From a virus, in IMG/VR virus record IMGVR_UViG_3300009499_000053: a stretch of 64,000 bases of DNA. The stretch is one strand, 5' to 3'. Below, in pieces: positions 12,824-63,915 of this stretch. A model generated the notes under the pieces. That model did no database searches, was not told where the DNA came from, and worked only from the letters and a program-made list of their open reading frames with translations. Each line of letters opens with the position of its first letter. Positions within the stretch are counted from its first letter, which is position 1. A program made the position numbers and the translations under genes.

Positions 12824-12824
12824 A

Positions 12825-24392: not shown

Positions 24393-24422
24393 GGCTTATT
24401 ACCCATAACTAATAATATACAT

Positions 24423-24491: not shown

Positions 24492-24503
24492 TGTATAATC
24501 AAA

Positions 24504-24620: not shown

Positions 24621-24626
24621 ATCATA

Positions 24627-36947: not shown

Positions 36948-37139
36948 ATGCCAACTCATGGAAGTATAAGTAAAGCAGGAAAGGTTCGTAATCAGACTCC
37001 CAAGATTGAGAAGACCCCTAGAAAGAAGAAGAGCCCTAAAGTAAACAACAGGAAGAAACACTACAAACGGTTCATACTAAACCAAGAAGTAGGACAGAGT
37101 GAAATAGGAAGAAGAAAACGTGGAAGACGCAGGGTATAA
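36948..37139 (+). CDS. rps30e: ribosomal protein eS30 (S30e)
   Basis: MPTHGSISKAGKVRNQTPKI..YKRF. Confidence 0.95.
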   Translation: MPTHGSISKAGKVRNQTPKIEKTPRKKKSPKVNNRKKHYKRFILNQEVGQSEIGRRKRGRRRV

Positions 37140-37336
37140 TTCAGGTCTTTGCCCTAACCTTAAAGAATGTGGAGAATGGAGAGGAGAATGGTATTGGGGA
37201 TTCTGTCATCAAGACTTTGCCTGGTCACGATGCCCTCTGTTTATAAAGACAATCAACCCAAGTTCTAGATATCTAGGTATGGAAACCTTCCTTAAGTATA
37301 CTCAGTTAGAAGTAATGAGAAAGGCGTTGAAAGAGA

Positions 37337-38209
37337 ATGTCAAAACCTATACAGGGAAACGTAGAAGTAATCACTAAGAAGAACTGGAAGAGGATTAAGC
37401 AGGAAGTAGAGGACTCTGTTCTCCGAGCCTGGAGAAATAGTAAACTTATTGTCCCTAGAATGGCCCTAGACTTCCGAGTACACTTCCAAGAAGTATATGC
37501 ATCATCAACTGGTAGAATCTGGGCTTTTACCCCTTTCTGGAGAGGAAGAGTCTTTACCGATGTTATCATGATGCATGAGTTTCTCCATTGGGCTATATAT
37601 CCTATAGATCTATGGAAGGGACTCTCTGACATGTTCAAGGCACGAAGAATGTTAGCAGAGGATCTTAAGTGGAAACCTACAAACAAGGAAACTGACCTCT
37701 ATGGAGAGGTAGAGGACTGGTCAGGTTTTGAATATGACATTACAGAATTCAGCTTTGTCCAGAATATCTTAGGAGACTATCTAATCAATCTTCATATACA
37801 TGATAACCATCCTATTCTCTTTGCTGATCTATGGAAGTTCCTTTACCATGATGGAACCTTCTATGAGCAACAGAAACAACTAAAGAGAGACTCTACCTTT
37901 ATTCTCTACCTATCAGCATACCCTGATCTTCTAAGTGACATAAAGGAAGAAGTTACCCTGATAGATCCAAAGTCAGAGAAGGACAAGGATAAGATCATAG
38001 ACATTATAGTAGAAGTACGACATGGTAGAATGAGTAAGGTCTACGCCATTAAGGAACTGACTAAGATCTTTCATCCGTACATAGTACAGGATCAGAAGGA
38101 TTCTAAGGGTAACAAGGGAGCAGAACCAAAGTGTCCTAAGTGTGGTCACGATGAGTTTGAGGTAGTAGGGTACGAGGATCCAAAGACAGGGAAGTGGGTA
38201 GATGTCTAA
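37337..38209 (+). CDS. HEXXH metallopeptidase-like protein (MoxR-associated), ends with a lone CxxC
   Basis: MHEFLHW, NILGDYLIN; terminal CPKC. Confidence 0.65.
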   Translation: MSKPIQGNVEVITKKNWKRIKQEVEDSVLRAWRNSKLIVPRMALDFRVHFQEVYASSTGRIWAFTPFWRGRVFTDVIMMHEFLHWAIYPIDLWKGLSDMFKARRMLAEDLKWKPTNKETDLYGEVEDWSGFEYDITEFSFVQNILGDYLINLHIHDNHPILFADLWKFLYHDGTFYEQQKQLKRDSTFILYLSAYPDLLSDIKEEVTLIDPKSEKDKDKIIDIIVEVRHGRMSKVYAIKELTKIFHPYIVQDQKDSKGNKGAEPKCPKCGHDEFEVVGYEDPKTGKWVDV

Positions 38210-39383
38210 AGGATACTTTAACCCTTCAATGAGACATGATCTACATTTCCATGATAATTGGGGAGATCATGAGTGTCCAGCTAATAAATGTGAGTACATT
38301 GTCTTTGATGACTTTGGATACAGAATCGTCTATTGTAAGAACTGTGGTCAAGCAGATAGAAGGAAGCTATAGAGGATGAACAGATGCCTAAGAGAATAGC
38401 ATGCCCTAATTGCAAAGGACATCTTAAGAGAGGGAGCCTAGCTCTAGATGAGAGAGCCTGGGAATGTGAGAATTGTCATACGATCTTTACAGATAAATAC
38501 CCAGTAGAAGAAAAGAAGGGAAAGTTTAACCCCAGTAAAAGATAAGTGTAATAGAACAGTATGAGTGACTCTCAGAATGAGTAAATTAGCACCTATAATA
38601 TGTCCAAGATGTCTTAGTAAGGAACTAAGGATAGCAAAGGCTACGTTTGTCACTAAACCTTATCTGATTCACTACTGTCTATGTGGATGGGTAGAAACTA
38701 GAAAATACCGTAAAGGATTAGTACCTATGATCCTTAAAGATTCATTTAACCCGAGTATGAGATAGAATGTATAAACCTCCTCAGATATTTCAACCTAAAC
38801 CTGCCCCTGTTTATCAATTCTTGGAGCTAAAGTGTCCTCATTGTGGGTATGAGATCTACCGACCCTACCGTGAATTAACAGACTTACCATCAGAAATACT
38901 ATGTATAAAGTGTGGAAAGCACTACTCTGTATCCAGTCAATGGAATCCTTCGAGGAGATACTTATGAGTAAACATGTTCATTGTCCAAAATGTAATGCCC
39001 AAGGTTACTTAAAGGCACATAAAAAAGAATGGAGTATATTCATTTGCCGAAGATGCAGATGTCTCTTCTCAGTGTCACAGAGCGATTTAGAACAGATACA
39101 TGAGACATCTGACACAGAAGTGGTACTCCCCTTTAATCCTAGTTCGAGGTAGTAATAATGAGAAGACCCCGGTTTGAGGAAGTCTGTATCCATCCTTTCT
39201 ATCTTAAGAAGAAGAAACTATGTATCCACCCAGATGACAGAATCTTCTTCTTTGAACATCCGGCCTTCTTCGATAAATCTTTCTTTAGTTCTGATAAAGT
39301 ATTCAAACCCTTTCAGTTAGGAATGATTTATGGATATGAGGTCTTTGTTCAGGATGATATGCAGATTATGCTCCTAAGTATGA

Positions 39384-40397
39384 ATGGAGGAAAGAGTGTT
39401 GAAGATTAAGATAAAATGTACTAAATGTAATTGGGAAGCAGTAGTAGAGGTATCACGCTCCCCCTTAGGTTCTCTAAAACCAGGTAAAGCTATCAAGGGT
39501 ACAGGGAAAGGACTGAAAGTTAAGTGGACAAAGGAACAACTGGATAAGGTTATGGATGCTGCTGGAGGACTAGGTGCCTCTAGAGATGAGCTAGGTCAGG
39601 TAGGTATCCGTGTCCCCATTCCTCAGTGGGTAGACGCCCTGGAACGTAGAAGACTTAGACAGTTTGTAAGGAAGCATCTAAAGGTCTCTAAAGATTTAAG
39701 AAACGCTCAGGGAGAAAGAAGTCAAGTATCTACTGCTCCTTGGCAAATGGGAGATTCTTTCAAAGATGTAGATCTAGCCTCTAGTGAAATTGCAGCCTAT
39801 GGAGTTCCCGATCTTCGTCTTATTCCTGGAGTAACCCTACAGAAGAGGGTCTTTGAGACTACTAAGGGAGGAGACCGAGAGATACTTAGGGGAATAAAGT
39901 TCTTTAACATCATAGATGTCTCAGGAAGTATGTTCGGCGGATCAAGTCAAAGTCAAGGAAATATCGATAAGGTTCACAAAGCACTTATGATGGCCGAAGA
40001 GACATCAAAGATCTGTAAGAAGTTAGGTTATGACTACAACTTGTCTATCTTCTCTGGTATAGCTACTAGGATTCCCAAGAGAAAGATCAAAAGATTCTTT
40101 AAATCTGAGACTGAAAGAGCAACCTATCCTGGATGGAATGGAGGAACTACACTATCATCTGCTCTCGGACTATACGATCTAAAGGAACTCAAGGATGGAA
40201 ACTTGGTCATAATGTCTGACATGGATATATCTGACTCTGAGGAATCTAAGAAGAAGTTGAAAGAGATAGGAAATGTAACCTCATCCTTCAAGGTAGTAAT
40301 TATAGAGTATCGTTCTCAACTAAGGAAAGAAAGATTAATAAGAACAAGGGAACTATTTCCAGATAAGAAAGTACAAATACTCCGAATAGCAATCTAA
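39384..40397 (+). CDS. VWA-domain protein, begins with a lone CxxC
   Basis: MIDAS DVSGSM, GGT, MSD. Confidence 0.8.
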   Translation: MEERVLKIKIKCTKCNWEAVVEVSRSPLGSLKPGKAIKGTGKGLKVKWTKEQLDKVMDAAGGLGASRDELGQVGIRVPIPQWVDALERRRLRQFVRKHLKVSKDLRNAQGERSQVSTAPWQMGDSFKDVDLASSEIAAYGVPDLRLIPGVTLQKRVFETTKGGDREILRGIKFFNIIDVSGSMFGGSSQSQGNIDKVHKALMMAEETSKICKKLGYDYNLSIFSGIATRIPKRKIKRFFKSETERATYPGWNGGTTLSSALGLYDLKELKDGNLVIMSDMDISDSEESKKKLKEIGNVTSSFKVVIIEYRSQLRKERLIRTRELFPDKKVQILRIAI

Positions 40398-43092
40398 ACA
40401 GGAGGATCTATTATTGCCGAATAAAAAAGAAACAAAAGATTTCGAGATGAAGTCAGAATACTGGGAAGTAACAATAGACAAGGCAGACCATTCTGAGATT
40501 AAGTACATCATCGTCTTCAAGGATAAGGTGATCCCAGTGGGAGAACTAAGAAAGCTTGAAGAGGCTATAAGGAAGGTTCTCGAAGCATGTGGCCGTATAG
40601 AGACTTTGCATCCTTCAAAACGCCAATAAATCTTGACAAATGCAAGGTCTGTGGTACCTATGTCTGTCTTGTACCAGTGACCTATGGCAATGCATTGTTT
40701 GGATACGTCTGTGGCCTCTGTGCAGGGATCCTATTCACGAAAGGGAACCTTAGAATAGGTTTCAACCCAAGCTCTAGAAACCCCTGGAGGATAGTGAAAG
40801 TAAAATGACAAAAGTAATACTTGAAGAAGATTCCTGGATTAGATGGATAGACAAAAAAGGCAATGGTACAATAAGAGTAGGTCAAGTTAAGAGACGAATA
40901 AAGGATAAGCCCTTTGATAGTCAGAATATAACAGTGGCTACTCCTAACTATGGAGAAACACAGTTAGATGTTAGTACAATCATAGAGGTCTTCCCTAAAA
41001 TAACAATAAGATTTAATCCTTCGGAGCGATAGAGATGAAACTACAAGGAATGTTCAAATGCCCTCAATGCGGAGGAGAGTTTGATGCATGCAGACCCAGT
41101 GGTCCTGGTAGAATCTGGGCTCATTGTGTAAGTTGTTCTCTAGTAGTTATTATAGAAGACTACAAACTCTGGCTAAGACGAGCACAGAGAAGAAAACAAC
41201 AAAAAACGGGAGTTCATGGTAGTAAATCGTATTCAGGAACGTTAGTCTACCCAGGTTTTGATACAGGGAAAACAAAGGAAATAGAGAAAAAGGAAAAGGA
41301 TGAATACAATCCAACGGAGAGATAATTAGATGCCTTATATAAAAGAAGAGGATCGTGTACCGATTAGTAGATATCTAAATGATCTGATAGCAATACTCAG
41401 AATCAAGACAGATAAGGGAAAACAAAGCAATGGTCAGGTAGTTTATGCTATCTATAGGATTATCAAGGAAGTCTATGGAGAAGGACGTTTTGAAGTAAAG
41501 AGTAATGCTTTGAAAGTCTTGGATGCTGCAGGTAAGGAATACTACAGACGAATCATGGTTCCGTACGAAAAAGAGAAGATCAAGGAAAATGGAGACGTCT
41601 AGTTTGGGTCTCAATTACTTTAAGTGTAAAATCTGTGGATTCTCTTTTCTAGAACTGTACAATCTTGAACACCATATGCTAACTTATCATAGGAAAGAAC
41701 ATACCCTAAAGAGGAAACAAGGTAACTTTGGTTGTTATTGGAGATGTTCCGAGTGTGGAATGGCATTCAAGAATGTGAAAACAGCTCTCAATCATTCAGG
41801 AGAAATGAATCATAATCCGACAGAGAGAATCGAACTGGATGGCTTTAATCCTTCGAGGAGATAATATGTGGGAATGTCCTTTCTGTGGTTCTGAGGCAGA
41901 GAGAGTCTTTCCTAGAGACTATACTTCGCGTTTAATCTATTGTCCAGTTTGTAAGGTTCATACTTCTCCAAACTAAAGATGGCAGAGAAAGAATTCAATC
42001 CAACAAAAAGAGGGGAAAATTAAATGAGTGATGAAGGAAAGAAAAAGATCAAGATAGACAGGTATAATCCAAGCTCTAGGAAGAACGAAATAATAGAGAT
42101 AGAGCAGGTACAAATAGGAACAGTAAAGTACAAAGACATTGGAGATAACTTTGAATGCCTTGTAGGGATAGAGACAGAAGATTCGGATGCTGGTTTGTAC
42201 AGAGGAAAGAGTGTAACTATGAACTCACCCAGGAGAATATCTAGGATTAGGTGGGATGTATCTAAACACCACAGCCTAGGAGATAGAGTAGATCTTAGTC
42301 CCAGAGATATTCAAGTCCTAGATGCAATCCTTCAATACCTAAAGAAAATGGGTTACCATGTGGGATAAGAAAGATGGGCAAAGTGAAAGACATACTAAAG
42401 AAACTTAGAGGAAAACAAGGGACTATTTCAGATCTAGAGATTCCACCGGATCATGTTAGATGTTCAAGGTGTAAAAAGACAGTTCCTAAGGGAAAGGCTA
42501 CTGTTGACCTAGAGGCCTCGACAAGACGTACAGAGGTATGGGTCTGTGATGGATGTTTCTTTGGACATGCAATCTAAGGAATACCCCTCTAATCTTCGGG
42601 GAAGACTCTCGGAACAGACCAGATGTGAAGTCTGTAAAGACTTTCTCAATGATTCTTGGTGTCTAACAAGCGTATGTCAGATTTGTTGTGAGAAGGGACG
42701 TTGTAGGAGAAAAGAACATTGTTGTGTCTATCCAGATATCCTAGTTCGTCTACAGTATCAGAAAAAAGAAAGTGTGATCTATAATCCATCTAAGAGGATA
42801 AAGATTTGACCCTTAAAAAGAGAGAATGTTATTACTGTAAGACAGATGTTACTGAGGGTGAACGTCTGAGGATCAGTTTAATGGCAGGAAAGGCTAAGTA
42901 TGTTGGTACTAGCTTACAAAGTAGTGGACAGCTTGAAAAGATTTATGTCTGTTCTGACTGTTCTAGAGATTACTTTGAACTCATAGTTATGGGACACAGT
43001 AATACGCACAATCACTTAAAGTTAATACTCCAAAGAATGATTCCTACTAAGAGAATAAAGAAAAGAGAATGGAACCCTACGGAGAGATAATC

Positions 43093-44711: not shown

Positions 44712-47349
44712 GATTCAAAAGGAAAAAGACCAAGACTTATATCAAGATAGAGTTTGATAAAAAGACTCAGGAGATTAGGATAGAAGTAGAACCAGAGACT
44801 GTAAGACCTACTGAGATAATCCAGACTCTTATGCTAGCAATAAACGTTATAAGCCAGACTCTACAAAAGGAGTTAAAGGCGAAGAAAGAAAAGAAGAAAC
44901 CAAAGAAGTTGGGATATATTGGATGACTGGACATCACGGACATTCAGTTAATGAGACTAAGGCAAGATCCTTACTTAAGGCAATATCAGGAAGGGTAATT
45001 GAGATTGCTGTAGGAACCCTAGTCTTTGGAACAATAATCTCTATATTCTTTCCAAGTATTCCTAGTCCCTTTATAGCAGGGCTTGGTTTTAATCTATTAG
45101 AGGAAACAGTCTGTTTTATAGTAACCTATGGTACTGAAAGAGTATGGAATAAAGTATCCTGGGGAAGGAAGGTGTTAGATAAAATTGTCATACATGGATC
45201 CAGAGAAGAAGAAGATAGCACAGAAAGCTAAGTGGAGACACTACTATATCTGTAGAATATGCAAGAAGAAGTACAGAGGACGGAAACGATGTTCTAGATG
45301 TGGGTCTAGTAATAGAAGGGAAATACATCATGATGCCAGAAAGAAAGGAAGAAACTGATACGGGGATAGTTAATCTCCTCTGTGAGGAATGCGGAAGGAT
45401 TACCCCTCATATCTTAGAGGAGAGAGGTAGAACTAAGAAGGTTGCAATCTGTGTCCTCTGTGAAGAAGAAGTTGGAATCTTAGGAACAGAGACAGAAGAA
45501 TGAAAGATCAATATGGTAGACTACTTCAGTGTCCTCAGTGTCGTGGATATATGATTATAGGAGTCCATGTACCTTTTGCTTCTAGCAGACATCGATGCAC
45601 AGATTGTGGTTATAAGGGTAGGGAAGAGTCCTTTAGGGCTGTTCCAGCTAAGGCTGTAATTGAATACTTTAATCCATCGGAGAGATAGTAATGAAAAATA
45701 GAACCCTTTCATCTAAGAAGAAGACACTTGACTTTGATAAGATAGAGATAATCATCAGAAGTCTAACCCTAGACGAGTTGACTATAGTCCTTGGAAAGAT
45801 AAAGAACGGTCCTCTTCATGGAGCAAAGCAGGCACTTGAATATGGAATAGTATCTCCTCCCAGTATCAAGAATAATCCTGGAAGATTAAACGCTGAGATT
45901 GCACTTGTTGTTGCAACAGAGATTCTAACACTATCAGGACTATATGAGAAACCCCCCTATAACCCCTCCGAGAGATAAGTATGGGCTTCATTTCATCATC
46001 AACAGTAGAGTTTAAAAAGGCAAAGTACCCAAAGCTCACGATGGAAACTATCTGTGCTAACTGTGGAACAATGGGTTGGAAGACTATGATGAGGAAAACG
46101 GGTAGACTATGGGTCTGTAATAGCTGTTGGAAACTATTCAAAGAAGAGATAATGAACCAAAAGACCGACAATGTAACAGTTAGGAAAAGAAGGTTTAATC
46201 CATCGGAGAGGTACTGATGGAAACCACATGTTCCTTTTGTGGAAGGAAATCTAAGATTACTACGATAATCAGTAGTTTCTTTATTTGTGAGAGATGTCAT
46301 CTAGAGTATGAAAAGACAAAAGCTGGAATGACTACAATGGAAAAGTATAAAGATAAACGATTTAACCCATCGGAGAGATAAAAATGGAATGTCCAACCTG
46401 TAATAAGGAGAGTCAACCTCTCTGTCCATTCTATGATGGATGTAAATATAGACATTCACAGCTCCAAGCAGAGAGGGTTTGCTGGAAGACACCACACTAC
46501 TGTGACATCTATAGAAAGAAGAACAGAAGAGCACCCCCGACAGAACGAGAGGAGGAGTTTAATCCTTCAGAGAGGGATAATGATGTTGATATGTAGTGAG
46601 TGTCTTATGGACTATAAGCTCTCCAAACCAATGTTCCTTACCTCAAGGAGTAAAAGTCTTTGTGAAGATTGTAATCGGATCAGAACTTGTTTTAATATTC
46701 CTGCAAGTGTATACTCTTACAAGGATCTAAGGGACGTTAAGATACTAGAGAGAAAGAGAAAGAAATCATTCAACCCTTCGGAGAGGTAAGAATTGGGTGG
46801 ACGAGTTAGTTGGGAAGATGCGTATACACCTTGTAAGAAAGCGATAGTACCTTTATATGGGGAGAAGAAGAAAGTAAAGTATAGTTATTGTAATGACTGT
46901 CAGTTTTCTTTTGAGAGGAAGAGTCGGAGGAAAGATTGTCCCAAGTGTGGATCCTATAACATTTCTTTTATGGGAGGGAGTTTTGTCCCAGTAAAGGGGA
47001 TGTATTGGAATCCTTCAGAGAGATGAGGAGGAATGAGGAATTAATGCCTTGCAAACGGTTACCAAATGAGACACTTAAAGAATATAGGAAAAGAAGAGCT
47101 ATAGAATACAAAAAGAGAATACAGGGATACTTCAGCTCAATTGATGAAGCCTTTGGTGACGCTATGGGAGACAATAAGAAATCCTTCAAAAAAGCCTTTG
47201 AATCCAGTACAGGTGTTAAGGTCAACGAGAAGACAAGAGTTAAAGTTAATCAGATAACAGATACAGAAGATGGTTGTAAACGTTATGATGGAAACAGAAA
47301 AGAATCATCTAAAAAGGTCAATGAAATAACAGATAAAGAGGAATGAGAA

Positions 47350-48846
47350 ATGGAAAACATATGGAAAGTAGATATGAATCGTCTAATAAAACTAGTAGCA
47401 GAGAGAATGTATAGTGATCCAATTAAAGCAGGAATAAGAGAACTAATCACAAATAGTCTAGACGCTCGGGTAGGACAGGTAACGATCCGGATAGACTATG
47501 ATGATATTCAGAAGACATTACATTATTCAGACTCAGGAATAGGAATAGATCCTAAGACCTTTAAGGATATCTATGGCAAGATAGCATCAGGCCATAAGAG
47601 ACGTAAGAACTCCAGAGGCTTCTTTGGTATAGGGAGAATGTCCCTAATTGCTGCATCTAAGAAAGGAATGATAGTATCCTACAAGGATAATAGAGTCTAT
47701 ACCTGGTTCTTTAACAAGAAGGGATGGAATGGACCTGAGGTACAGGATGATGAGGATAAGATAGGCCATGGAGTCTACATCTATTTCAATGGTATAGAGA
47801 TAGAGGATCTAGGAGAGATGGAGCTATGGATCCAGAAGACTTTTTCTGTTCCCCTAGCGAGAAAGGAATGTACCATCCAGTTCCAGATGGGGAGTATTTC
47901 TAGTCTAATTGATGATCAGTGGACTGTGTACCCTGAGATTAAGACTAAGAATGGTCCAATTCTGTTCTATGCTAAGGAACAGACAGATGGAACTCTTCAT
48001 GTATGTCAGAAGGGAATCTTAGTAAAGGAAGAGAGTTATACCGGTCTAACTGTGTTCGCAGACCAGAGCTTCTTAGAGATTAAGACAGATAGGGAAGGTT
48101 TTATTAATAATGCTAAGTATCGTCAGTTCAACTCTATTGTGAAGAAGGAACTGGCTAAGATAAGACCACAGAAGAGCTTCAAGAAGATGGAAGTGCATTT
48201 CATTCGTAGACTTATGAAGGAGTTTAAGAAGTATTGGCTTGTCCAGGCAAAGAAGACTGATCCTGTTCTGGAGAAAGTAATACTAGAGTTTCCTAAGACA
48301 GGGAAAGAGTTAGTTACAGATAAACCAGAGACTAAGGAGACTATTCCACTTATTGATCAGCCAGGGTTTGAAGAGGTCAAGAAAGAACTAGAACTATGGG
48401 ACAATGTACCAAGTGAAGGACTAGATGGACCTTTCCCACCACCAGAAGGACAAGAACACAAGGAAGGAACAAAGAGCACCGAGGTTATCAAGGCTGAAGA
48501 TGTAGAAGGGGATAGAGCAGGTTACAGTACAGCTGCAGAAGCAGAAGACAATAAAATAATCAAGGAGAAGACGGTAGTAATAAAAGGAGCTAAACCCGTT
48601 GATCTTGGAGAGGATTATCCAATGGTCTTCTTTGAGACTGATCCATTCATACTTGTCTTCAATACCTCACATCCAGTCTTTAAACAACTGGTAGAGAAGG
48701 GGAAACTTAGCTCTGCTCAGTTAGCTGTTCTATTTGAGAGGATGTTTGAGTGTGCATACACTGATCGTTTCCCAGTAGAATCACCCGAAGAGTTGAAGAA
48801 AAGATGGAAGGAAGTCGATCTGAAACTCAAGGAAATATTCAAGTAG
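47350..48846 (+). CDS. GHKL (Hsp90/MORC-like) ATPase
   Basis: RELITNSLDA, DSGIGI, GFFGIG. Confidence 0.85.
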   Translation: MENIWKVDMNRLIKLVAERMYSDPIKAGIRELITNSLDARVGQVTIRIDYDDIQKTLHYSDSGIGIDPKTFKDIYGKIASGHKRRKNSRGFFGIGRMSLIAASKKGMIVSYKDNRVYTWFFNKKGWNGPEVQDDEDKIGHGVYIYFNGIEIEDLGEMELWIQKTFSVPLARKECTIQFQMGSISSLIDDQWTVYPEIKTKNGPILFYAKEQTDGTLHVCQKGILVKEESYTGLTVFADQSFLEIKTDREGFINNAKYRQFNSIVKKELAKIRPQKSFKKMEVHFIRRLMKEFKKYWLVQAKKTDPVLEKVILEFPKTGKELVTDKPETKETIPLIDQPGFEEVKKELELWDNVPSEGLDGPFPPPEGQEHKEGTKSTEVIKAEDVEGDRAGYSTAAEAEDNKIIKEKTVVIKGAKPVDLGEDYPMVFFETDPFILVFNTSHPVFKQLVEKGKLSSAQLAVLFERMFECAYTDRFPVESPEELKKRWKEVDLKLKEIFK

Positions 48847-49662
48847 ACTTCAACCCCTCAGAGAGAAAGGACAGACGAAAGAGGGTACTTAAGGCCCTTA
48901 AGGTTCTGGAGAGTACAGAGTATCTAACTGAGGAAGAATGGGATAAACTTAGTAGATTAAGGGAAAAGTCACGAAGGAGAGACTTTGTAAGATGGATGAA
49001 AAACCGAGGACTAAAGTAGGAAGAAGGACTTTACAGAAGAAGTACTGGGAATCAGATATCCACTGTACCATGAATCATAAGGAAGTGAAGATCTTCTCTA
49101 CTGAATTCTGGCCTACATTATTTGGGTCTTCAGATTTAGATCTAATAGGAGCAAAGGGAACGTGGACTAATATTCCAGGATTTACTCTCTATTTCCAACC
49201 TAGTACAGAAGTAGTAATTGATTCGATAGTAGTATCCCTAAAGAGGAATGGTAGAACTTGGTTCATAGTTAAGAAGAAAATCATACCTGAGATTAAGATG
49301 CAATCTCAAGATACATTTAGACTAACAATACAAATGGATGAGTCATGGAATGGTAAGTAAGAAGAGAAAGGTAATATTAACCTTCAATCCTTCATCTAGA
49401 AACCCAGTTACATTAGATGAGGATGGGTTGGACTTCATTGAAAGTACAATCCGAAACGCAGGAATAAAGTTTGCTGATGAACAGGATAAGCAGACCATGA
49501 TTATCCTTATGGGGATAATTAGGAAGAAACTTAAACATGAATCTGACTTTGCTCAGAAACTTAGAGAGTTTCTAGAGATAGATAAGTTGATACAGGAGAA
49601 TAAGGTTGAATGGTGTGTTAAGCAATGACAGAACCAGCCTTTAGACATGGGAAGTATGAAGA

Positions 49663-51013: not shown

Positions 51014-51877
51014 AATGAAATGTGTAGATAAGAAAGGTCATGAATATGGCTTCGTAGGTTACATGGTAGTCTGTGAAGAGATTCAGGGAAAGACAGAGAA
51101 AGGACGAAGAACGCCACAACCAGGAACCGCAGGGCCTGTTATTCTTAAACTACCTGAACACTTCTCTGCAAAGATAGAAGTCTGGCAATGTCTTAAGTGT
51201 GGTCACATTAAATTAGCTCCTGCTGTCTTTACGAGGTTATAGAGATGAAGTACCATAGAATTGCGAAGCAGTGTCCATTCTGTCCCACTATTAAATCAGC
51301 TTATACCTTTAAGACATTTCATGGATTACGTAAGCACATCCTCCAATGGCATCTTCAAACAAAGAAAAGAAGGAGTTGGTATATTTGGTCAAGAGGACGG
51401 GGAAGATTCCCGAACAAAGAGAAACCTGCTTTCATCAGAGTCTATAAAGTGAAGTACTCTGAATATCGTGATATTCCTGTAAATGGGATGGCTCACGTAG
51501 AAGCAATAGTTCAAGATCACTGTAAAGAATTTAATCCATCTATGAGGGGGATAAAAGTATGGCCGATGAATTAGATCAGAACTGGTATCCAGAGTATGTC
51601 TACATTAATGAGGAAGTAAACCGTCTCTATGATAAGGAGAGAGAAAGGATTACTCAGAAGATCACTAATCGTAAGACAAAAAGGACTCTAAGGAAGAACC
51701 TTCAACTTATTAGGATCTTTCTTCCAGAGAAGGATTTTAAGTTCCTAGAGAAGCACAAGGCCTTTAGGAAGTTACATAATCTTGGGGGAATCCCCGTAGT
51801 CAAGATCAAGGAAGATAAGATCAGGATAGATACTGAGGTAGTTAATCCTAGGAAACGAAAGAGGAAGACGGTTATTT

Positions 51878-52252: not shown

Positions 52253-53461
52253 AGATAGGCCCAGTTGGTACGCCTCAAGATGGAGAAGCTCCTATAATTG
52301 GGATACCAATAAATCAACAGTTCTGCATGAGAAACCAATTCGTTGTCCTTACTGTGGATATTATATGGGATTCCATATAACAACAGGATATGGATCACAT
52401 TCCTCTGACAATTACTGGATTTGTCATCAATGTCGAATGAGTTTACCAAATCAACTAGACTTCAGACCTGAGTTTCTTGAAGGGGCTAGGAAGAACTACC
52501 GTAAACATCTGAAGAATGAAATGGAGAATACGAAAGGAAAGTTTGATAGACTGAAAAACCTTTATAACCAATATGGAGTATACTTTACTAAAGAGGAGAA
52601 ACGTGACAGGCTGATAGAGACGATTGAGGAACAGGGGAATAAGAATGCAATACAAGAATAAGGATAAAACGAATCCTACTTCAAAGGACTTCGGGGCATC
52701 TATGCATACCCCTACCAAAGTTCTAAAGGAAGCCAAGCAAGCTAACAGAGGAAAGAGAGTAATGAGGAAGGTCTTTGACGCAAGGAGATACCCTGATAGG
52801 GAGTCAATAGACTTAGGTGTCTGTTGGATGTGTTGGATGGATCTTACAGAGGAACCATTAGAGAAGTGGAGAAGAGAACCCTACAGCTTTGTTATCCCTC
52901 ATGATCAAGTTTGTCCCTTATGTGGATACATGCACTGGAAGGGAAGGATATGGTATCCATTTAGGTTCATTAGAGGTTATATTGGTAATCCATCAAGTAG
53001 ACATGGAATTAGGGGAAGGAAGTAAGATGATGAAGAAGTGTAGTTTATGTAAGAAGGAGATCTGGTGTTGGACAGAGATCGATGGTAAAGCAGTGTGTAA
53101 TGACTGCAGAGAAAATAATGTCTGCACAGGGAAGAAAGGGAAACCTAAGCCTATAGTGAAAGTCCATAAACCCAGAAAGAAACCTTGGCTTAGGATAATC
53201 ATTCGTAGATCTTGGAGTAAACCTTGGATAAAGTTTGTACTCAGGAAGAAGAAGGGAGATGAGAGATGATGAGTAACAAGGTAAGACAGAGAACAAGTAA
53301 CCGTGTAATGCAATGCCCCAGATGTGGTTCCAAGGATCTTGAAGAGGTAGTTTGTTGTGGGGGTAAGACAAACTACAAATGTAAGAAGTGTAAGCTTCTC
53401 TCAAGATCTAAAGATGTAAAGAGAGGAGAATTGCCCTCCCAAAATAAGGAGAAAAAAGATA

Positions 53462-53998: not shown

Positions 53999-54337
53999 CT
54001 AAAAGATGGAAGTATAGGAAAGTAACTCCTGAGAACAGAAAGAACATGAAGGACCTAAGGGAAAAAGGATGGTCCTATGTAAAGATAGGAAAATTGTTTA
54101 ATATAGATCCTCACTCTGTCCGTTATTGGATAGATGAAGAATATAGACAACGATGTATTAAGCGAGCTAAGAGTAGAAAGAGGAAACCCCTTACTGATGA
54201 GCAGAAAACAAAGAGGAAAGTCTACATTAGGAAATACATCAAGAAGAGATATAACGAGGATCCTGAGTTTAGAGAGAGATTTCTAGGCCATACTAAGAAA
54301 TGGCAGAGAAAGAACAAGGCAATGAATAAAGTGGGAA

Positions 54338-54937: not shown

Positions 54938-54974
54938 CAATTCTCATACAAGAACAAATCGGAGATAAAATAAT

Positions 54975-56708
54975 ATGACATTAAAATTAAGTGAAAACGC
55001 TAAATATATTCTAAGTCAGAGGTATCTCTTAAAGGATGAGAATAGGGAACTCATTGAAACACCTATACAGATGTTCAGACGGGTTGCTAAGGCAGTAGCA
55101 GCATCAGAGTTTAAGTACGGAAAGACCAAGAAGGATGTAAAGAAGTATGAACGAGACTTCCTACGGATGATGACTAGTCTGGAGTTTCTACCCAACTCTC
55201 CTACGTTGATGAATGCAGGTACAGATCTAGGTCAGTTGAGTGCTTGTTTTGTTCTTCCTGTAAGTGATAGTATTGATGAGATCTTTCTAGCAGTAATGTA
55301 TACTGCAAGGATTCACAAGACTGGAGGGGGAACTGGGTTCTCATTCTCACGATTAAGACCAAAGGATGACATTGTTAAATCTACAGGTGGAGTAGCCTCA
55401 GGTCCCCTATCCTTTATGACATGTTTTGATACTGCTACAGAGGTAATTAAACAGGGTGGAAAGAGAAGAGGAGCTAATATGGGTGTCCTCAGAGTAGATC
55501 ATCCTGATATCCTAGACTTCTTAGTGGAGAAGGAGCAAGAGGGGAAACTTAGGAATTTTAATCTCTCAGTTGCCTTAACTGATAAGTTCCTAAATGCTGT
55601 AGAGAAGGAGGCAGACTTCAGTCTTATTAATCCAAGAACTAAGAAGGTAACCAATACTATTAGAGCTAGGACTATCTGGAACCTTCTAATCACTATGAGT
55701 TGGAAGAATGGAGAACCAGGAGTCATCTTCTTAGATCAGATGAATAGGGCAAATCCTACACCAAAGGTAGGAGAGATAGAGGCTACAAACCCATGTGGTG
55801 AACAACCATTACTACCCTATGAATCCTGTAACCTGGGTTCTATTAACCTCTCTAAGTTCATCAAGAAGAATGGACAGATAGACTGGGAGAAACTTAAGAG
55901 AACGGTCAGACTAGCAGTTCGTTTCCTAGATAATGTAATAGATGCTAACAAGTATCCACTACAGGAGATAGCGAACCAGACCCTAGCTAATAGAAAGATA
56001 GGTCTGGGAGTGATGGGCTTTGCTGATCTTCTTCTAAGACTAGGAATAAGGTATGATACCAAGAAGGCAGTAGACCTTGGAAGAAAGATAATTAAGTTCA
56101 TTAAAGAAGAGGGATTTAAGATGTCACAGGAGCTAGGAAAGGAGAAGTCAAGCTTTCCGAATAAGAGAAGGTCTATCTTTAAGGATATACCCTACCTAAG
56201 GAATGCCACAATTACAACCATTGCACCTACAGGAACAATCTCTCTAATAGCTAACTGCTCCTCTGGGATAGAACCAATCTTTGCAGTGGTACAGAGAAGG
56301 AACGTAAAAGAGAGTCTAGGAAAGGATCTAATAGAAATCAATCCTGCCATTAAGATCTCCCTTGAGTTGAAGGGACTATGGTCTGATGTCATGGAGGAAA
56401 CTTTGAGGAAGACAGAATGCGCTAAGTGTCTCTTGATTCCTAAAGCAATGAGGGACGCCATAGTTACCTCTGCTGAGATCTCTCCTAAGTGGCATGTAAG
56501 GATGCAAGCAGCCTTTCAGGACTATACGGACAATGCTGTTTCCAAGACAATAAACCTACCCAATAAGTCTACTGTGGATGACATTGAGAGGGTCTACCTA
56601 TTAGCTTATAAGTTGGGATGCAAAGGTATTACTATATACAGGGATGGAAGCAGAATATTCCAGTTATTAACTAAGGGAGGAAGGGTATCATGCCCCAAAT
56701 GTGGTTAA
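54975..56708 (+). CDS. nrdJ: class II (B12-dependent) ribonucleotide reductase
   Basis: PNSPTLMNAG, LSACF, TNPCGEQPL, TIAPTGTIS, C-terminal CPKC. Confidence 0.95.
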   Translation: MTLKLSENAKYILSQRYLLKDENRELIETPIQMFRRVAKAVAASEFKYGKTKKDVKKYERDFLRMMTSLEFLPNSPTLMNAGTDLGQLSACFVLPVSDSIDEIFLAVMYTARIHKTGGGTGFSFSRLRPKDDIVKSTGGVASGPLSFMTCFDTATEVIKQGGKRRGANMGVLRVDHPDILDFLVEKEQEGKLRNFNLSVALTDKFLNAVEKEADFSLINPRTKKVTNTIRARTIWNLLITMSWKNGEPGVIFLDQMNRANPTPKVGEIEATNPCGEQPLLPYESCNLGSINLSKFIKKNGQIDWEKLKRTVRLAVRFLDNVIDANKYPLQEIANQTLANRKIGLGVMGFADLLLRLGIRYDTKKAVDLGRKIIKFIKEEGFKMSQELGKEKSSFPNKRRSIFKDIPYLRNATITTIAPTGTISLIANCSSGIEPIFAVVQRRNVKESLGKDLIEINPAIKISLELKGLWSDVMEETLRKTECAKCLLIPKAMRDAIVTSAEISPKWHVRMQAAFQDYTDNAVSKTINLPNKSTVDDIERVYLLAYKLGCKGITIYRDGSRIFQLLTKGGRVSCPKCG

Positions 56709-56967
56709 AGTGTCCATACTGTGGTCAACCCTTCAAAAACGATTTCAGAATGAAGGAACATTGTTGGCAAAGACATTGGTGGACAGGATACGTAGAGAGA
56801 TACGTGACAATGGCGTTTAATCCATCCTGTAGATATGGGTACTGGGATTAAAATGAAGTGTCTTATATGTGGTGGTAATATGGTAAGGATGCCTGTCCAG
56901 AAAGACTGTGGTCAAGGACACTGCAGTATAGAATGGAAAAACGTTTGCAATAATTGTGGAGAAATGA

Positions 56968-57858
56968 GTGATTAAAATGAGTAAACAAGGAATAGGAAAA
57001 AGAACAAGCATTAGAAGTTATCCAGGAGTAACCCTAGACTTAATGGAGAGAAAACTAAAAGTGATTGATATTCCTTTGCAACCAGGTCAAACCTACAGCG
57101 AAGTCATCTTTATGGGTGATTTTCATGTAGGAAGTGATGGTTTCTCAGAGCATCAATTAAAAGCATACCTAGACTGGATCAAGGATAACCCGAGTGTTAG
57201 AGTCATTCTAATGGGAGATTTGGTTGAGGTTGGTGATCTATCTGGTCATCTACCTGCACAGAAAGAAGCATTTAAGGATCAAATCATTAGACTGGTACAA
57301 CTACTAGAACCAATTAAGGAACAGATTATCTGTATCCTAGAGGGTAACCATGAGGAGAGATATGCACGAGAAGTAAAGAATGCTATTGAGTTTTCACATT
57401 ACCTAGCTCTTGAGTTAGGTATCTCTAGGAAGATACTGAAACCTGGACCTCAGAAAGGACAGATAATGGTTCTAAAGGTAGGTGAACAATACTATCCTAT
57501 CTACTGTATACATGGGAATACCTCATCCATCTATAATAAGGGTACACAACTCAAGAGGATGGCCTTTACAACTAAGCTTCCCTTAATTATACATGCACAT
57601 ACACACCAGATCTATCATGATCACTACATCTATCGTATGCCTAACAGGATAGCAGGGGACTTCTATGAGTCAGTATTTGAACAGCACTGGGTAGTCTCAG
57701 GTTGTTTTGTTAAGTACCTAGGTTATGCAGAACAGAAGTCATATCCAATGTCTAAGATCGGAGCTCCTATAGTTCGCTTCTTTGGGGATTCGCAGGGACT
57801 AATGGTCATAACAGATGCTATGTTCTTCTATGGGATAGGAAAGAACCCCTCTTATTAA
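56968..57858 (+). CDS. metallophosphoesterase
   Basis: GDFHVG, MGDLVE, GNHE, HG, AHTH. Confidence 0.85.
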   Translation: MIKMSKQGIGKRTSIRSYPGVTLDLMERKLKVIDIPLQPGQTYSEVIFMGDFHVGSDGFSEHQLKAYLDWIKDNPSVRVILMGDLVEVGDLSGHLPAQKEAFKDQIIRLVQLLEPIKEQIICILEGNHEERYAREVKNAIEFSHYLALELGISRKILKPGPQKGQIMVLKVGEQYYPIYCIHGNTSSIYNKGTQLKRMAFTTKLPLIIHAHTHQIYHDHYIYRMPNRIAGDFYESVFEQHWVVSGCFVKYLGYAEQKSYPMSKIGAPIVRFFGDSQGLMVITDAMFFYGIGKNPSY

Positions 57859-59168
57859 GATCTTCTTCTATAGGATGGAGGAAGGATGGGAAGGAAGTTA
57901 AAGTACGAGAAGATTCTATTTCCTAAAGATAGACCTAAGTGTCCACGTTGTGGTGGTTTACATGTTATCTCTAGAGGAGTGGAATGGGGATGTGGTAACT
58001 GTGGTAGGAGATGGGCAAAGCGTTTAAACTGGGGAAAGAACTATGAGAAAAAAGAGATGGACGGAAAAGCAGTTAAAGGAGAAGATTGAAGAGATAAAGG
58101 GTCAGGTCAACTACCAGAAAAGGACTATTAAGAGATCAGAAGATGAGATTAGAGACCTAGAGATCCTTCAAAGATACTTTAGGGAGATGCTGGCTAAGAA
58201 GTATGATAATCCCTCGTCAGTTAAGTTCGGAGGTCCCCAGAAATGAAAGGTCATAAGAACTTTAAGGTTCTAAGGACATGGAAAGGAACAAGTTATAGGT
58301 TGTTTGAGTTGGTTAAATGCCCTGAGTGTGGGATTAACTTCGTAAGGGATATTAATCATGAAAGGTACTGTATCATAAAGATTCCCTCAGTTTGCCCAGG
58401 TTGTAGATATCCTTGGACCTATTACCAGAAACTTAGGGAAGAATTAGAGAATAAGGGTATACCGAAGGTAGCTCCACCATTTAATCCTACGGCGAGGGTA
58501 CAGTAATGTGTCAGAACCCCTGGAAAGAGTGTAAGAAACCAGGATGCGTTGTCCTAATCCTTTATAAGAAGTCGAGTAAAGAGATATGTAAGAGGTGCTG
58601 GAATGAAATCGCTGTTTCCGATCGGGAGTGGGGTAACTCTAAAAGACGCACTAAAGAATAGGTATCCCGGTCTAGAGTTTGATATAGAGGATGACATTAC
58701 ACGGGGAAGGAAGATGATTAGGATTTCACTAGAGGATACTGAGACGTACAGAATCGATGTAGTGTTTAGTCAGACTTTGTTAGCAGCAGGACGTCCAGAA
58801 CTAATGTCAATGCACATAGATAGTGCAGTAAAACGTCTTAGGGAGTATGTAAGACAGGAAAAGTGGGGAGAGAACAATCCATCATCAAGGTGGTACTGTT
58901 GAGTATTGAGTTAATAGCTATTTTGGCTGCAGTGATTATTTCCCTTGTTAATCTGTTGCTTGGTCTTCTAAGGACTTATTATGCTAAGTACACAAAGAGG
59001 ACCTACCAAGGTTCAGTAAATTACTGGTCCTCCTGGCAGAAAAGGAAGTTTGATGTAGCAGCCGAGGTTCTCAAGGAGATGGGAATAGAGTCTCCTGAGG
59101 ATATGAGGAAGTTAATGAAGAAGATTACGAAAGAGAAAAAGAGGAATCTAAAAGAGAAAACAAAGTAG

Positions 59169-61617: not shown

Positions 61618-61619
61618 AA

Positions 61620-62081: not shown

Positions 62082-62536
62082 GTAAATGTCCAATAAAAAG
62101 GAAGACAGATAACTTAGCAGTAAAAAGAAAGTTAGAGAACTTTACTGGAGATCTTCTGACACCAGAGGAGAAACAGTTCAGATTAAAAAGATTACAGAAA
62201 GAAATCGAGAGTAAACGAATCGATGAGGAAATGGTTCCTTATGTTAAACGAATCAACGCACTCTCCTCTTTTGTAACTACACAATGTTGTTTTGGTCATA
62301 AAGGAAATGACCATAATCAAAGAGCTTACATAGACTTTAGGAGTTCTTTAAAGCCCGGGGAGGTAATAGAACAGATCCTCAAGCCAATGTTATTGAAGCA
62401 TAATGTTCTACAAGTACAACTCTTTGGTCTCTGGAACGATCGTTTACGTTACTGTATTAGATTGGAAAGTAAGTTCTGGAAAGAAGAAATGGAAACACTA
62501 ATCAATATTCTAGAAGGAATTGAATATGGTAAGTAG
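62078..62536 (+). CDS. TYW3/Taw3-like tRNA methyltransferase-fold protein
   Basis: IDEEM..VKRIN....VTTQCCFGH. Confidence 0.55.
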   Translation: MSKCPIKRKTDNLAVKRKLENFTGDLLTPEEKQFRLKRLQKEIESKRIDEEMVPYVKRINALSSFVTTQCCFGHKGNDHNQRAYIDFRSSLKPGEVIEQILKPMLLKHNVLQVQLFGLWNDRLRYCIRLESKFWKEEMETLINILEGIEYGK

Positions 62537-62912
62537 GAAACTTAGAGTATATCTTGGGGGAAGCAAAGGTACATGGAGAAGGAAGTTTGCTAAGGAGAAT
62601 CAGGACTGTGAATGTTATGATCCCTTCAAGCATTCTAAACAGACTGCACTAGTTTCCTTTACCCAAAAAGATCTACAGGCAGTGAAAGAGACAGATGTCC
62701 TCTTCATCTATATTAACTACAAAATCTACACAGGAAGTTGTATAGAGGCAGGGTTTGCCTTTGCTCGGGGAATACCTATAATCTTGGTATTTGAACTAAA
62801 GGGTTATATTGACCCATTGCTACTAGGTATATCACGGAAGGTCTTTACAGATCTGGACTCAGCAATAGACTGGTTTAAGAAGTCGACTTATGTTAAGAAG
62901 GTGAGGAAATGA
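62520..62912 (+). CDS. nucleoside 2-deoxyribosyltransferase-like protein
   Basis: VYLGG..WR..YDP..DLQAV..D..GSCIEAGFA. Confidence 0.75.
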   Translation: MNMVSRKLRVYLGGSKGTWRRKFAKENQDCECYDPFKHSKQTALVSFTQKDLQAVKETDVLFIYINYKIYTGSCIEAGFAFARGIPIILVFELKGYIDPLLLGISRKVFTDLDSAIDWFKKSTYVKKVRK

Positions 62913-63549
62913 GTAACTGCACAGGCTGTCACAATTCTTTTGGGGATCATCCTAATCCACATAGTAGAGAGTGTACAATTTGTATACGGAATCCTAGGTA
63001 TCCTACTATGAAGATGCCTGATAAGGCTACTATAGATGGAGTAGAGGTAACAGTGCCCCAGGATCTGTACATTACTGAGGATAGAAAGAAGTTGGATGAG
63101 AAACGAATGTTAAAGAAACTGGCTGAGGTGGCAAATACTATAAACCGAAGAAGGGAACATGAAAAGATCATTCCTCTTAAAAGACCTAAGCGTTTACGTC
63201 CAGCATATTCACCTTGGGAGGCATATTGGGACTATGTCTACTGCCAGTGAGAAACACACGAAAGTTGAGTCTCCATCTGGAGGTACAATAGATCCAACTA
63301 TGTTCGGGCGAAGGATCAGGGAACTACCAACGAAAGAGGATAATCCTAGTTCTCGTTACTTTGGACATTTGGTTTTCCCCTTTGGATTTAAGAAAGGTGC
63401 CCTAGAGCTTGAGGACCAGAACCTAGTATGGAATGGAGCAATCATTGTAAACTGGAATATTGATATTCCTTTTGAAGATGAGAAGAAAGATAGTAATCCT
63501 TCTTCTAGAACCTTTGGAAAGTTAGCAGATGTGAGGGAATTGATAGGAA

Positions 63550-63915
63550 ATGACTACCAAGAAACGATCAGTATCTGAGTGGATAGAGTACTGTAAGAAG
63601 AATGCTAATGAGCATGGATTCACGATAGTTTGGGAAAGACAAGAAGGACCAATGAATCCTATAGAGAAGTTAATGAAGATTGTCTCAGAGTGTTCAGAGG
63701 CTTTAGAGGCCTATACTGCACAGAGTAAACCTAATGATGGAAAGAATAAGATACACTGTGATAACTGGAAGGAACACTTTGAAGCAGAGATAGCTGACAT
63801 TGTTATTCGTACATTACACTTAGTGGGAGACCTAGATATTGATCTAGAAAGTATCTTAGAGAAGAAGATGAAGTATAATAAAAAGAGATCACACTTACAT
63901 GGGAAGTTAACTTAG
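63550..63915 (+). CDS. MazG-like NTP pyrophosphohydrolase
   Basis: IVSECSEALEA..EIADIVIR..KMKYN. Confidence 0.85.
   Translation: MTTKKRSVSEWIEYCKKNANEHGFTIVWERQEGPMNPIEKLMKIVSECSEALEAYTAQSKPNDGKNKIHCDNWKEHFEAEIADIVIRTLHLVGDLDIDLESILEKKMKYNKKRSHLHGKLT

Follow-up and report, generated by a model that had tools for sequence, protein, structure and literature searches.

The viral sequence analysed here, IMG/VR record IMGVR_UViG_3300009499_000053, is a stretch of 64,000 nucleotides (nt); this whole 64-kilobase (kb) stretch is called the window below, and all its genes lie on one strand (+). Two features of the window are considered. The first is a hexapeptide tag, [FYW]-N-P-[ST]-x-R with x free, found on some 30 small proteins, most of which are encoded between 37 and 64 kb. 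The second is an operon at 34.0-40.6 kb encoding a probable MoxR-class ATPase, a HExxH metallopeptidase-like protein and a vWA protein with a metal-ion-dependent adhesion site (MIDAS), with several tagged genes among them. The tag is real, portable and selected as a peptide, the operon is conserved, its peptidase and vWA proteins are fused in some relatives, and the link between tag and operon is one of position.

A hexapeptide shared by small proteins

How far does the tag exceed chance? When the window was translated in six frames and searched with the regular expression NP[ST]xR and its aromatic form [FYW]NP[ST]xR, the three + frames yielded 35 copies of NP[ST]xR and the - strand yielded one. 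F, Y or W precedes the motif in 27 copies. Near-misses are rare, as all 27 [FYW]NP[ST] strings on the + strand run on into x-R. Among 157 greedily called + strand open reading frames (ORFs; 94% coding) there are 32 copies of NP[ST]xR, whereas 2000 within-protein shuffles of the same ORFs gave a mean of 0.21 and a maximum of 3; for the aromatic form the figures are 24 against 0.02. The excess over shuffled ORFs and the strand asymmetry both agree with the first-pass annotation, which had noticed the motif in the letters of the sequence and whose listed coordinates are all correct. A literature search with the motif string returned only an unrelated gene, NPTXR.

The carriers are small, with at most 120 amino acids (aa) in 27 of 30, and they are unevenly distributed: the tag is present in 27 of the 65 ORFs in 37-64 kb and in 3 of the 91 in 1-37 kb. 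The motif is the exact C-terminus in 12 copies and ends no more than 3 residues before the stop codon in 19. Five or six copies are near the N-terminus, and two proteins have two copies each. The motif had been described as absent from the large enzymes. This holds for the aromatic form; one large enzyme, a Metallophos protein (56968-57858), contains a non-aromatic DNPSVR, which is probably a chance occurrence.

The carriers had also been called unrelated. With the tag masked, 31 of them show no significant pairwise similarity, and the best E-values (~1e-3) are driven by CxxC knuckles, so the description is apt for the set as a whole. It is less secure for the 14 of 31 that are zinc ribbons (CxxC...CxxC, two or more CxxC pairs), which may be fast-diverged paralogues. 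One further carrier is a confirmed C2H2 protein, two more are C2H2-like by eye, and several others have no cysteines. Pfam and PHROGs searches of the carriers gave weak and heterogeneous zinc-ribbon matches, none of which extends over the tail.

Within the operon, the first carrier is an 85-aa Cys-rich mini-protein with an internal INPSSR (37120-37377, + strand like all that follow), and its orthologue in the relative L001, at 62% identity, keeps INPSSR. Five tagged genes lie between the HExxH and vWA genes. The first has FNPSMR at residue 6 (38202-38372). It is followed by a zinc ribbon ending FNPSKR-stop (38384-38545), a mini-protein ending FNPSMR-stop (38565-38765), a zinc ribbon ending WNPSRRYL-stop (38767-38967), whose L001 orthologue keeps WNPSRR, and a zinc ribbon ending FNPSSR-stop (38964-39152), which belongs to a family of mini-proteins upstream of the vWA gene.

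A second group follows the operon. It begins with a zinc ribbon in which 9 residues follow FNPSSR (40587-40808; the L008 orthologue keeps FNPSSR), a cysteine-free protein ending FNPSER-stop (40805-41032; FNPSER is kept in L001 at 38% identity) and a zinc-ribbon protein ending YNPTER-stop (41035-41325), for which orthologues have FNPSRR and FNPSKR. The confirmed C2H2 zinc-finger protein (41523-41864; Pfam zf-C2H2, 29 bits, above cut-off) has two tags, HNPTER and FNPSRR-stop. A putative 14-codon ORF at 41979-42023, M-A-E-K-E-F-N-P-T-K-R-G-E-N, contains FNPTKR and almost nothing beyond it; it overlaps the start of the next gene and could be a relic or a tag peptide in free form. That next gene encodes a 114-aa protein with YNPSSR near its N-terminus (42024-42368), and its match in L003 (13613-13936) holds FNPSSR at 13640. 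Two overlapping Cys-rich mini-genes end YNPSKRIKI-stop (42546-42809) and WNPTER-stop (42806-43090).

The remaining carriers are more scattered. A 71-aa helical protein has FNPSER at residue 16 (48804-49019), a position that is kept in L001 and L003, and a 96-aa protein has an N-terminal FNPSSR (49338-49628). The two carriers judged C2H2-like by eye are at 51245-51574 (CxxC...HxxxxxH, FNPSMR plus 8 residues; INPSMR in the L003 orthologue) and 56690-56851 (CxxC...HxxxH, FNPSCR plus 5 residues). A 133-aa zinc-ribbon protein has GNPSSR plus 7 residues (52624-53025), two proteins end FNPTARVQ-stop (58243-58506) and NNPSSRWYC-stop (58603-58902), and a 139-aa protein with two non-aromatic copies, DNPSSR and SNPSSR (63159-63578), is a weak member of the set. 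Two carriers are outlying. A Lys/Glu-rich protein of 82 aa has FNPSAR at residue 30 (23936-24184). A 60-aa protein ending FNPSSRNH-stop (13298-13480) lies far from the main cluster, directly after a transfer RNA (tRNA) array, and is the sole carrier with a hydrophobic, membrane-helix-like N-terminal stretch.

Is the tag conserved? A set of 32 metagenome sequences with 44-73% identity to the vWA protein was taken as relatives, and about 30 surrounding loci were fetched. The tag is present on the coding strand of every fetched locus, with 0-1 copies on the other strand. Its density is 5-12 copies per 10 kb in the close clade, at 33% guanine-cytosine (GC) content, and 1-5 copies per locus in the distant clade. 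N-P-[ST]-x-R is unchanged in orthologues with 30-46% identity, whereas the residue at -1 may be F, W, Y, E or I, x is variable and the linkers differ by insertions and deletions; N-terminal copies are likewise conserved. In an alignment of 10 zinc-ribbon mini-proteins encoded upstream of the vWA gene (A3; 25-47% identity), the only invariant positions are three zinc-binding Cys, the Pro of the first CPxC knuckle and the P, S and R of the tag; the fourth zinc-binding Cys is conserved in at least 90%.

Across the family, 113 non-redundant copies were collected. The residue at -1 is F in 48% and one of F/W/Y/I/L in 68%; 36 of the 113 (32%) are at the exact C-terminus and 73% are no more than 12 residues away from it. 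The linkers vary in length and contain K/R/E in modest excess. Because the tag is found on different folds and is kept in diverged orthologues, a portable short linear motif for docking or addressing appears to be the most economical reading. The first-pass annotation had arrived at a short linear motif from the window only; the occurrence of one peptide on zinc-ribbon, C2H2 and cysteine-free proteins, and its retention in the relatives, add to the case.

The fourth position of the tag is Ser in 101 copies and Thr in 12. The two residues are interchangeable and no other is tolerated, as would be expected of a modification site, and [ST]-x-[RK] resembles a basophilic kinase site. The hydroxyl might then be phosphorylated, or it might be glycosylated by the product of a GT4 glycosyltransferase gene (43500, +; a 'conflict-system' Pfam match), which sits centrally in the tag cluster and is also found in the two tag-rich relatives, L001 and L003. 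Such a role is very improbable. No kinase was found in the window, the GT4 gene was not seen in the 21-kb loci of tag-poor relatives that keep tags at the vWA gene, and a modified site would still need a reader. An N-glycosylation sequon was ruled out separately, N-P-S being the non-acceptor form.

Peptide selection and an overlapping ribosome-binding site

Is it the peptide or the underlying DNA that is conserved? The copies in the window use the Pro codons CCA (14), CCT (13), CCC (5) and CCG (3), Ser codons of both families (TCN 21, AGY 9) and both kinds of Arg codon (AGR 31, CGN 4), as the claim of protein-level conservation had held. The choice among synonymous codons follows genome-wide usage, and none of N, P, S/T and R therefore has a fixed DNA consensus. 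In addition, F, Y and W are alike in chemistry and not in codons, and relatives of 32-45% GC retain the tag. The tag is therefore selected at the level of the peptide, not of the DNA.

A nucleotide signal is nevertheless superimposed on part of it. Where x is Glu, the codon is GAG in 12 of 12 copies (p = 1.5e-4), and TCG encodes 7 of 30 tag serines, against 4% genome-wide. Eleven of the 12 GAG copies have a candidate start (of an ORF of at least 40 aa) from 1 nt before to 10 nt after the Arg codon, and eight of these 11 starts are ATG at +4 to +7. At this spacing TCG-GAG-AGR spells GGAGAG, a Shine-Dalgarno site for the next gene.

The overlay is most conspicuous in seven consecutive mini-genes at 45500-47026 (+), which start at 45500, 45691, 45981, 46217, 46384, 46580 and 46793. 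Each ends in, or within 6 residues of, [FYW]NPSER, and each has a candidate start (ORF of at least 40 aa; ATG in six and TTG in one) 1 nt before to 6 nt after the Arg codon, a placement that fits the GGAGAG overlay. Family-wide, x is E or R (GAG or AGG) in 27 of 39 junction copies and in 5 of 30 internal ones (Fisher 2e-5), while TCG serines occur in 12 of 39 junction copies and 0 of 30 internal ones. At gene junctions, the Shine-Dalgarno-type element is seen only at the x codon and the wobble base of Ser, and not at N-P-[ST] or R. Since the GAG and TCG bias is concentrated at junctions, 'FNPSER' is read as a tag overwritten by a ribosome-binding site, in which x is free; the Glu and the TCG serines come from the overlapping site and not from the peptide motif. 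The consensus 'FNPSER' thus partly reflects the ribosome-binding site. The fixed nucleotide consensus that had been named as a possible objection is absent at N, P, S/T and R and present in the use of GAG at x and in the TCG bias.

Could the motif as a whole be a by-product, either of a nucleotide signal (a ribosome-binding site, translational coupling or a recombination site) or of descent, as the conserved tail of one diverged zinc-ribbon family that serves only the protein it belongs to? The junction bias towards GAG/AGG and TCG, the starts beside 11 of the 12 GAG copies and the fact that about half of the carriers are zinc ribbons would all be expected. This explanation is highly improbable and ranks last among those considered. 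The N, P, S/T and R positions use all synonymous codons, the aromatic residues share chemistry and not codons, the opposite strand has 1 copy against 35, internal and N-terminal copies without a downstream start keep the motif, and the carriers include C2H2 and cysteine-free proteins. The DNA overlay explains only position x and one wobble base, and a purely nucleotide-level origin of the motif core is excluded.

Two further candidates were rejected. A 2A-like or termination-related peptide is ruled out by the conservation of internal and N-terminal copies, and binding to a MIDAS through the Glu at x is ruled out because x is free and the Glu is explained by the overlay. More generally, a ribosome-binding site can be written over a functional peptide and distort its apparent consensus.

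The MoxR/HExxH/vWA operon as candidate reader

The operon opens with a probable MoxR-class AAA+ ATPase of 528 aa (34027-35613), which matches Pfam AAA_lid_2 above cut-off (28.8 bits); its bpMoxR match is below cut-off (19.3 against 27 bits), as is its match to the MCM P-loop. In every long related locus, the MoxR gene precedes the vWA gene. The next gene encodes a second P-loop or AAA-like protein of 263 aa (35610-36401; weak Pfam AAA and RNA_helicase matches), found in the tag-rich clade only: L001 and L003 have a counterpart of the same length at the same position, a correspondence by length and position between unaligned proteins, and the modules of L004 and L006 have none. It is followed by p190 (36374-36946), a conserved protein of 190 aa (~160 aa in relatives) with 21 invariant positions in 10 lineages (alignment A4).

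The HExxH metallopeptidase-like protein (37337-38209) has 290 aa, with an N-terminal HExxH domain like that of gluzincins, in which H80-E81-x-x-H84 is invariant in 11 lineages, and a C-terminal zinc ribbon. The vWA/MIDAS protein (39384-40397) has 337 aa, with an N-terminal zinc ribbon and invariant D178-x-S-G-S182, T255 and D279. In a Foldseek search with it, NorD (from the NorQD complex) ranked first and integrin I domains came next; the MDN1 MIDAS was also matched. Directly after it lies a conserved gene for a protein of 65-71 aa (40414-40629), which ends HPSKRQ-stop in the window and ...ACGR-xxx-NPS[KR]R-stop in distant lineages; the tail is exactly C-terminal everywhere except in the window copy, which has one extra residue. 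An orthologue is present in 23 of 24 listed sources and was not found in the L031 listing. For p190 and this tail protein, Pfam, PHROGs, a PDB profile search and the Atlas gave no informative match.

The HExxH protein belongs to a very small family, as an exhaustive profile search found nine clusters among 1.84 billion representatives. Its AF2 model (predicted local distance difference test, 83) has Atlas fold neighbours among M48, M56, YgjP/SprT and DUF2201_N at template-modelling (TM) scores of 0.33-0.62, and weak PDB fold matches include the jannalysin zymogen and selecase chains. The profile gave nothing significant against PDB sequences. There is no Pfam match, and PF13203 and PF09967 were not matched even at E up to 5.

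Two natural fusions, P0041 and P0039, join an N-terminal peptidase of this family to a C-terminal vWA domain (hhalign probability 100%), and the HExxH and vWA genes of the window are therefore read as the halves of one unit. In the window, they are split by the five tagged mini-genes described above and an untagged 83-aa ORF (39158-39409). P0039 contains an intein inside the MIDAS motif. In the divergent relative L115 (5834-12961), the MoxR gene has an intein and so has the gene for the peptidase-vWA fusion, where it lies inside the MIDAS DxSG motif; inteins typically target essential sites. In L006 the HExxH protein has 607 aa (L006:7793-9616) and the family profile matches two separate stretches of it (P0036), which suggests an inserted element, an intein or a homing endonuclease. 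A gene for the ribosomal protein uL16 (PF00252) lies closely after the L115 module (L115:13096-13695), with one 33-codon ORF between, and a uL16 gene is also found ~2 kb (five small genes) downstream of the module in the contig of P0041. Eukaryotic Midasin, which combines AAA and MIDAS, works on pre-60S ribosomes.

What connects the tag with this operon? In every lineage, tagged mini-proteins are encoded within it: before the vWA gene there are zinc ribbons of the [FK]NPSx[RK] type, one or two in number, and after it comes the conserved 65-aa protein. In 16 tag-poor loci, 25 of the 33 tags are at most 700 nt from the vWA gene, in 11% of the sequence (binomial 1.5e-17, for loci that are related). 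The sole tag copy is in the ORF right after the vWA gene in eight of these loci and right before it in one more. As the tag-poor loci are related to each other, the linkage is read as deeply conserved synteny and not as a series of independent events. In the fused-module lineage L115 (32% GC), NP[ST]x[RK] occurs 16 times on the coding strand and twice on the opposite one. The best reading of this distribution is that the ancestral state, which every related lineage has kept, was an operon with one to three tagged mini-proteins beside the vWA gene, from which the tag later spread to dozens of small genes in the lineage of the window.

Which protein reads the tag? The tag is tentatively interpreted as a portable docking peptide for which the best candidate reader is the virus's own MoxR/HExxH/vWA machine. 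The variable body of each carrier would bind a target of its own, or would itself be the client, while the constant tag would dock on the peptidase-vWA unit. Given that the tag is so often the exact C-terminus, the carboxylate of its terminal Arg may sit on the Mg of the MIDAS or the Zn of the HExxH site. The MoxR hexamer would then supply ATP-driven remodelling or pass the client to the peptidase. Most carriers acquire their ...NPSxR-COOH end from the stop codon, and trimming after the Arg would create that end on proteins with an internal tag. Binding, the choice of reader within the module and any cleavage are all inferred.

Among the candidates that the first-pass annotation had named for co-folding with the tag, MoxR has since been singled out through its synteny with the HExxH/vWA operon, its part as a reader being putative. 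ClpP (54338) received no support, as the tags of tag-poor relatives sit at the vWA gene and not at ClpP, and the AAA protein (59169), the capsid and PCNA gained none either. Co-folding of the vWA and HExxH proteins with Zn and a tagged zinc-ribbon mini-protein scored 0.00, with a poorly folded partner and no controls, and is evidence in neither direction.

Several points weigh against the operon as reader. It is nominated by a gene order conserved among viruses that are related, and the mini-genes could adjoin the vWA gene for other reasons. The majority of the window's copies are separated from the module by 1-24 kb. In the clade of the window, the protein after the vWA gene has lost the Asn of the tag (HPSKRQ, RPSKR, DPSKR) and is not a strict carrier. 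The five or six near-N-terminal tags imply that a free C-terminal carboxylate is not essential unless they are cleaved, and MIDAS ligands are normally acidic side chains, of which the tag has no conserved one. The assignments are also imperfect: that of MoxR combines a lid-domain match with sub-threshold P-loop matches, and the HExxH protein lacks a Pfam match and has weak PDB fold matches.

The remainder of the window bears on the host and on the other explanations. A 15-tRNA array on the coding strand (10198-13261) includes a 99-nt tRNA-like gene with an unassigned anticodon, possibly intron-bearing, at 11070-11168. It is followed by a gene for a eukaryotic-type Topo IB (14479-16035, +), which is full-length, with N-terminal, core and C-terminal Pfam domains. 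An RNA-repair/translation cluster on the + strand (18379-29289) encodes RlaP (18379), an eRF1-like protein (21358), Ro60/TROVE (26417) and an RNA ligase (28051). Ro60 contains a vWA domain and so gives the genome a second MIDAS-type domain besides the vWA protein of the module. ClpP (54338, +) and a classic AAA ATPase (59169, +) are encoded in the tag-rich region, and the window also encodes a GHKL ATPase and a ribonucleotide reductase (RNR).

The nearest cellular sequences to Topo IB are nearly all archaeal, with about 38-48% identity. The best-scoring matches come from Bathyarchaeia, Hadarchaeota, Aenigmatarchaeota, Methanomethylicia, Heimdallarchaeota and Nitrososphaerota, and a few lower-ranking ones are titled as bacterial metagenome-assembled genomes. 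Judged by this enzyme, the host of the virus is probably an archaeon. Topo IB, the HExxH protein and MoxR have no relatives in GenBank phages; in IMG/VR, neither relatives of the vWA protein nor the exact FNPSER-stop junction was found. The lineage is a large uncultured virus, known from a contig of 157 kb, without relatives among the catalogued viruses searched.

A second shared peptide, [LFV]Wxx[LIV]F (also given as [LFVIAM]Wxx[LIVF]F), often follows K or R, with 22 copies on the + strand and 5 on the - strand. It is found at 197-34690, mostly in 0-33 kb, and mostly 10-35 residues from the N-terminus of small ORFs. It never occurs in the same ORF as the NPSxR tag, and the genome seems to use two orthogonal tag sets.

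A serious rival to the operon as reader is a hub of the archaeal host. The tag would dock mini-proteins on a component of replication, transcription, translation, division or proteolysis, by mimicry or by use of an existing pocket, and the position of the tagged genes in the operon would be incidental. Small zinc-finger proteins of viruses typically act in host takeover, the majority of the copies in the window lie outside the module, a second and mutually exclusive tag suggests a general strategy of addressing several hubs, and Topo IB places the virus with archaea. This rival is possible, if unlikely. It leaves unexplained why the oldest carriers stay inside the module operon, and no archaeal hub motif that we know of (PIP box, HbYX, MIM) resembles the tag. 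Moreover, tag-ended genes are at chance or control level in 5 + 301 archaeal genomes, although the true host may differ. That scan used a degenerate DNA pattern for [FYW]NP[ST]xR-stop on one phylum (301 genomes) and 5 single genomes, some from other phyla.

The sole outlier in the scan was the genome G043, with 285 matches that turned out to be an array of clustered regularly interspaced short palindromic repeats (CRISPR). At G043:C1:1006631-1013699 there are ~100 or more repeats, each containing TAGAATCCTTCATGGAGTTGA, which fits the back-translated tag; the artefact is a warning for pattern scans of this kind.

Alternatively, the tag might be an address for virion packaging and ejection, with the carriers loaded into the capsid and delivered with the DNA, and with the MoxR-vWA-peptidase module acting as assembly chaperone and processing protease. 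The tag is terminal and on a linker, the module peptidase could remove targeting peptides, and MoxR-vWA pairs have been implicated in virion or tail assembly in Acidianus two-tailed virus (ATV) and predicted to act there in jumbo phages (PMC7824862). Nevertheless, packaging is improbable. The module and the tagged genes sit among replication, RNA-repair and accessory genes, and signals of the T4 type are N-terminal and cleaved, whereas 32% of the copies here are the very C-terminus, with nothing behind them to cut off.

The tag has also been considered as a degron for short-lived early proteins, to be read by ClpP and the AAA protein or by MoxR and the HExxH protein as a split FtsH. Its C-terminal bias recalls ssrA-type degrons, both ClpP and the classic AAA ATPase are encoded in the tag-rich region, and AAA plus HExxH is the logic of FtsH. 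This is quite improbable. Tag-poor relatives also have ClpP, yet their few tags sit at the vWA gene; the ClpP and AAA genes are not adjacent, and no ClpX/ClpA-type unfoldase was found among the 20 largest window proteins scanned against Pfam. Known ClpX/ClpA tags have non-polar ends, while this one ends in Arg. Furthermore, MoxR ATPases are not known as unfoldases, and conserved operon neighbours are likelier to be subunits or adaptors than substrates.

Returning to the operon as reader, a bolder and doubtful version treats it as an adaptor-programmed hub for remodelling or proteolysis. Each zinc-finger mini-protein would deliver a different host or viral target by its NPSxR tail. In an archaeal virus, this would parallel the families of substrate receptors that work with cullin E3 ligases (F-box/PRANC), with an AAA+ machine in place of ubiquitin, and the second tag would serve another hub.

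Tiny orphan genes that defy annotation abound in large viruses, and a shared label makes about 30 of them members of one testable system, for which conserved gene order nominates a concrete candidate reader. If the tag does dock on the MoxR-peptidase-vWA unit, it would be the first client-recognition code for a widespread and poorly understood class of AAA+ chaperones, which the virus would programme with exchangeable adaptors. It would also offer a six-residue handle for pull-downs of the carriers' targets.

Comparison with known systems

The principle of many proteins with one address label for one machine is shared with the poxvirus ankyrin/PRANC (F-box-like) proteins, the capsid-targeting sequence of T4 and the cargo-loading peptides of encapsulins. 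However, PRANC is a folded domain of ~50 aa, the T4 sequence is N-terminal, cleaved and limited to few proteins whereas the tag in the window is mostly C-terminal, and encapsulin peptides bind a shell of the HK97 fold. Sequence, host domain and candidate reader are all unlike those considered here.

A formal parallel may be drawn with the Ku-binding motifs (KBMs) of APLF, XLF, PAXX, WRN and CYREN, which dock on the vWA domains of Ku70/80. They too are terminal peptides on basic linkers, found at either terminus of unrelated factors that converge on a vWA-domain hub. The KBMs belong to eukaryotic DNA repair, have another sequence and a handful of clients, and lack an ATPase or peptidase partner, so this is a resemblance only.

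A chemical rationale for an exactly C-terminal tag beside the Mg of a MIDAS or the Zn of an HExxH site is provided by two other cases. The C-terminus of C3b binds the MIDAS of factor B as a metal ligand, and in the zymogens of minigluzincins (proabylysin and projannalysin) the C-terminal tail fills the active-site cleft. In contrast to these, the internal and N-terminal copies in the window would need cleavage or another binding mode.

In gene content, jumbo phages come close: they carry MoxR together with a peptidase-vWA pair that is predicted to function in virion assembly and processing (PMC7824862). Their systems with DUF2201-type peptidase-vWA proteins, considered together with the MoxR/vWA pair of ATV, combine the three activities of the window operon, and the fusion architecture is that of P0041 and P0039. 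The HExxH protein of the window differs in having no Pfam DUF2201 match, in belonging to a tiny family and in being split from its vWA partner by tagged mini-genes, and no peptide tag has been reported for the jumbo-phage systems. By sequence, the HExxH/vWA pair of the window is best described as an analogous or very distant architecture and not as a demonstrated member of the DUF2201 type.

The pairs NorQ/NorD, CbbQ/CbbO and RavA/ViaA each combine a MoxR-class ATPase with a vWA protein encoded beside it, in which the MIDAS is intact; the window has such a vWA protein together with a probable MoxR-class ATPase. MoxR/vWA pairs remodel their clients by contacts between the MIDAS and carboxylates, and in NorQD the vWA domain plugs the pore of the hexamer and carboxylates of the client are required (PMC9976466). 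These systems serve one dedicated client each (cNOR or Rubisco), whereas the operon of the window adds a HExxH peptidase-like half and tagged zinc-ribbon mini-proteins, and its putative ligand is a short terminal peptide common to dozens of proteins.

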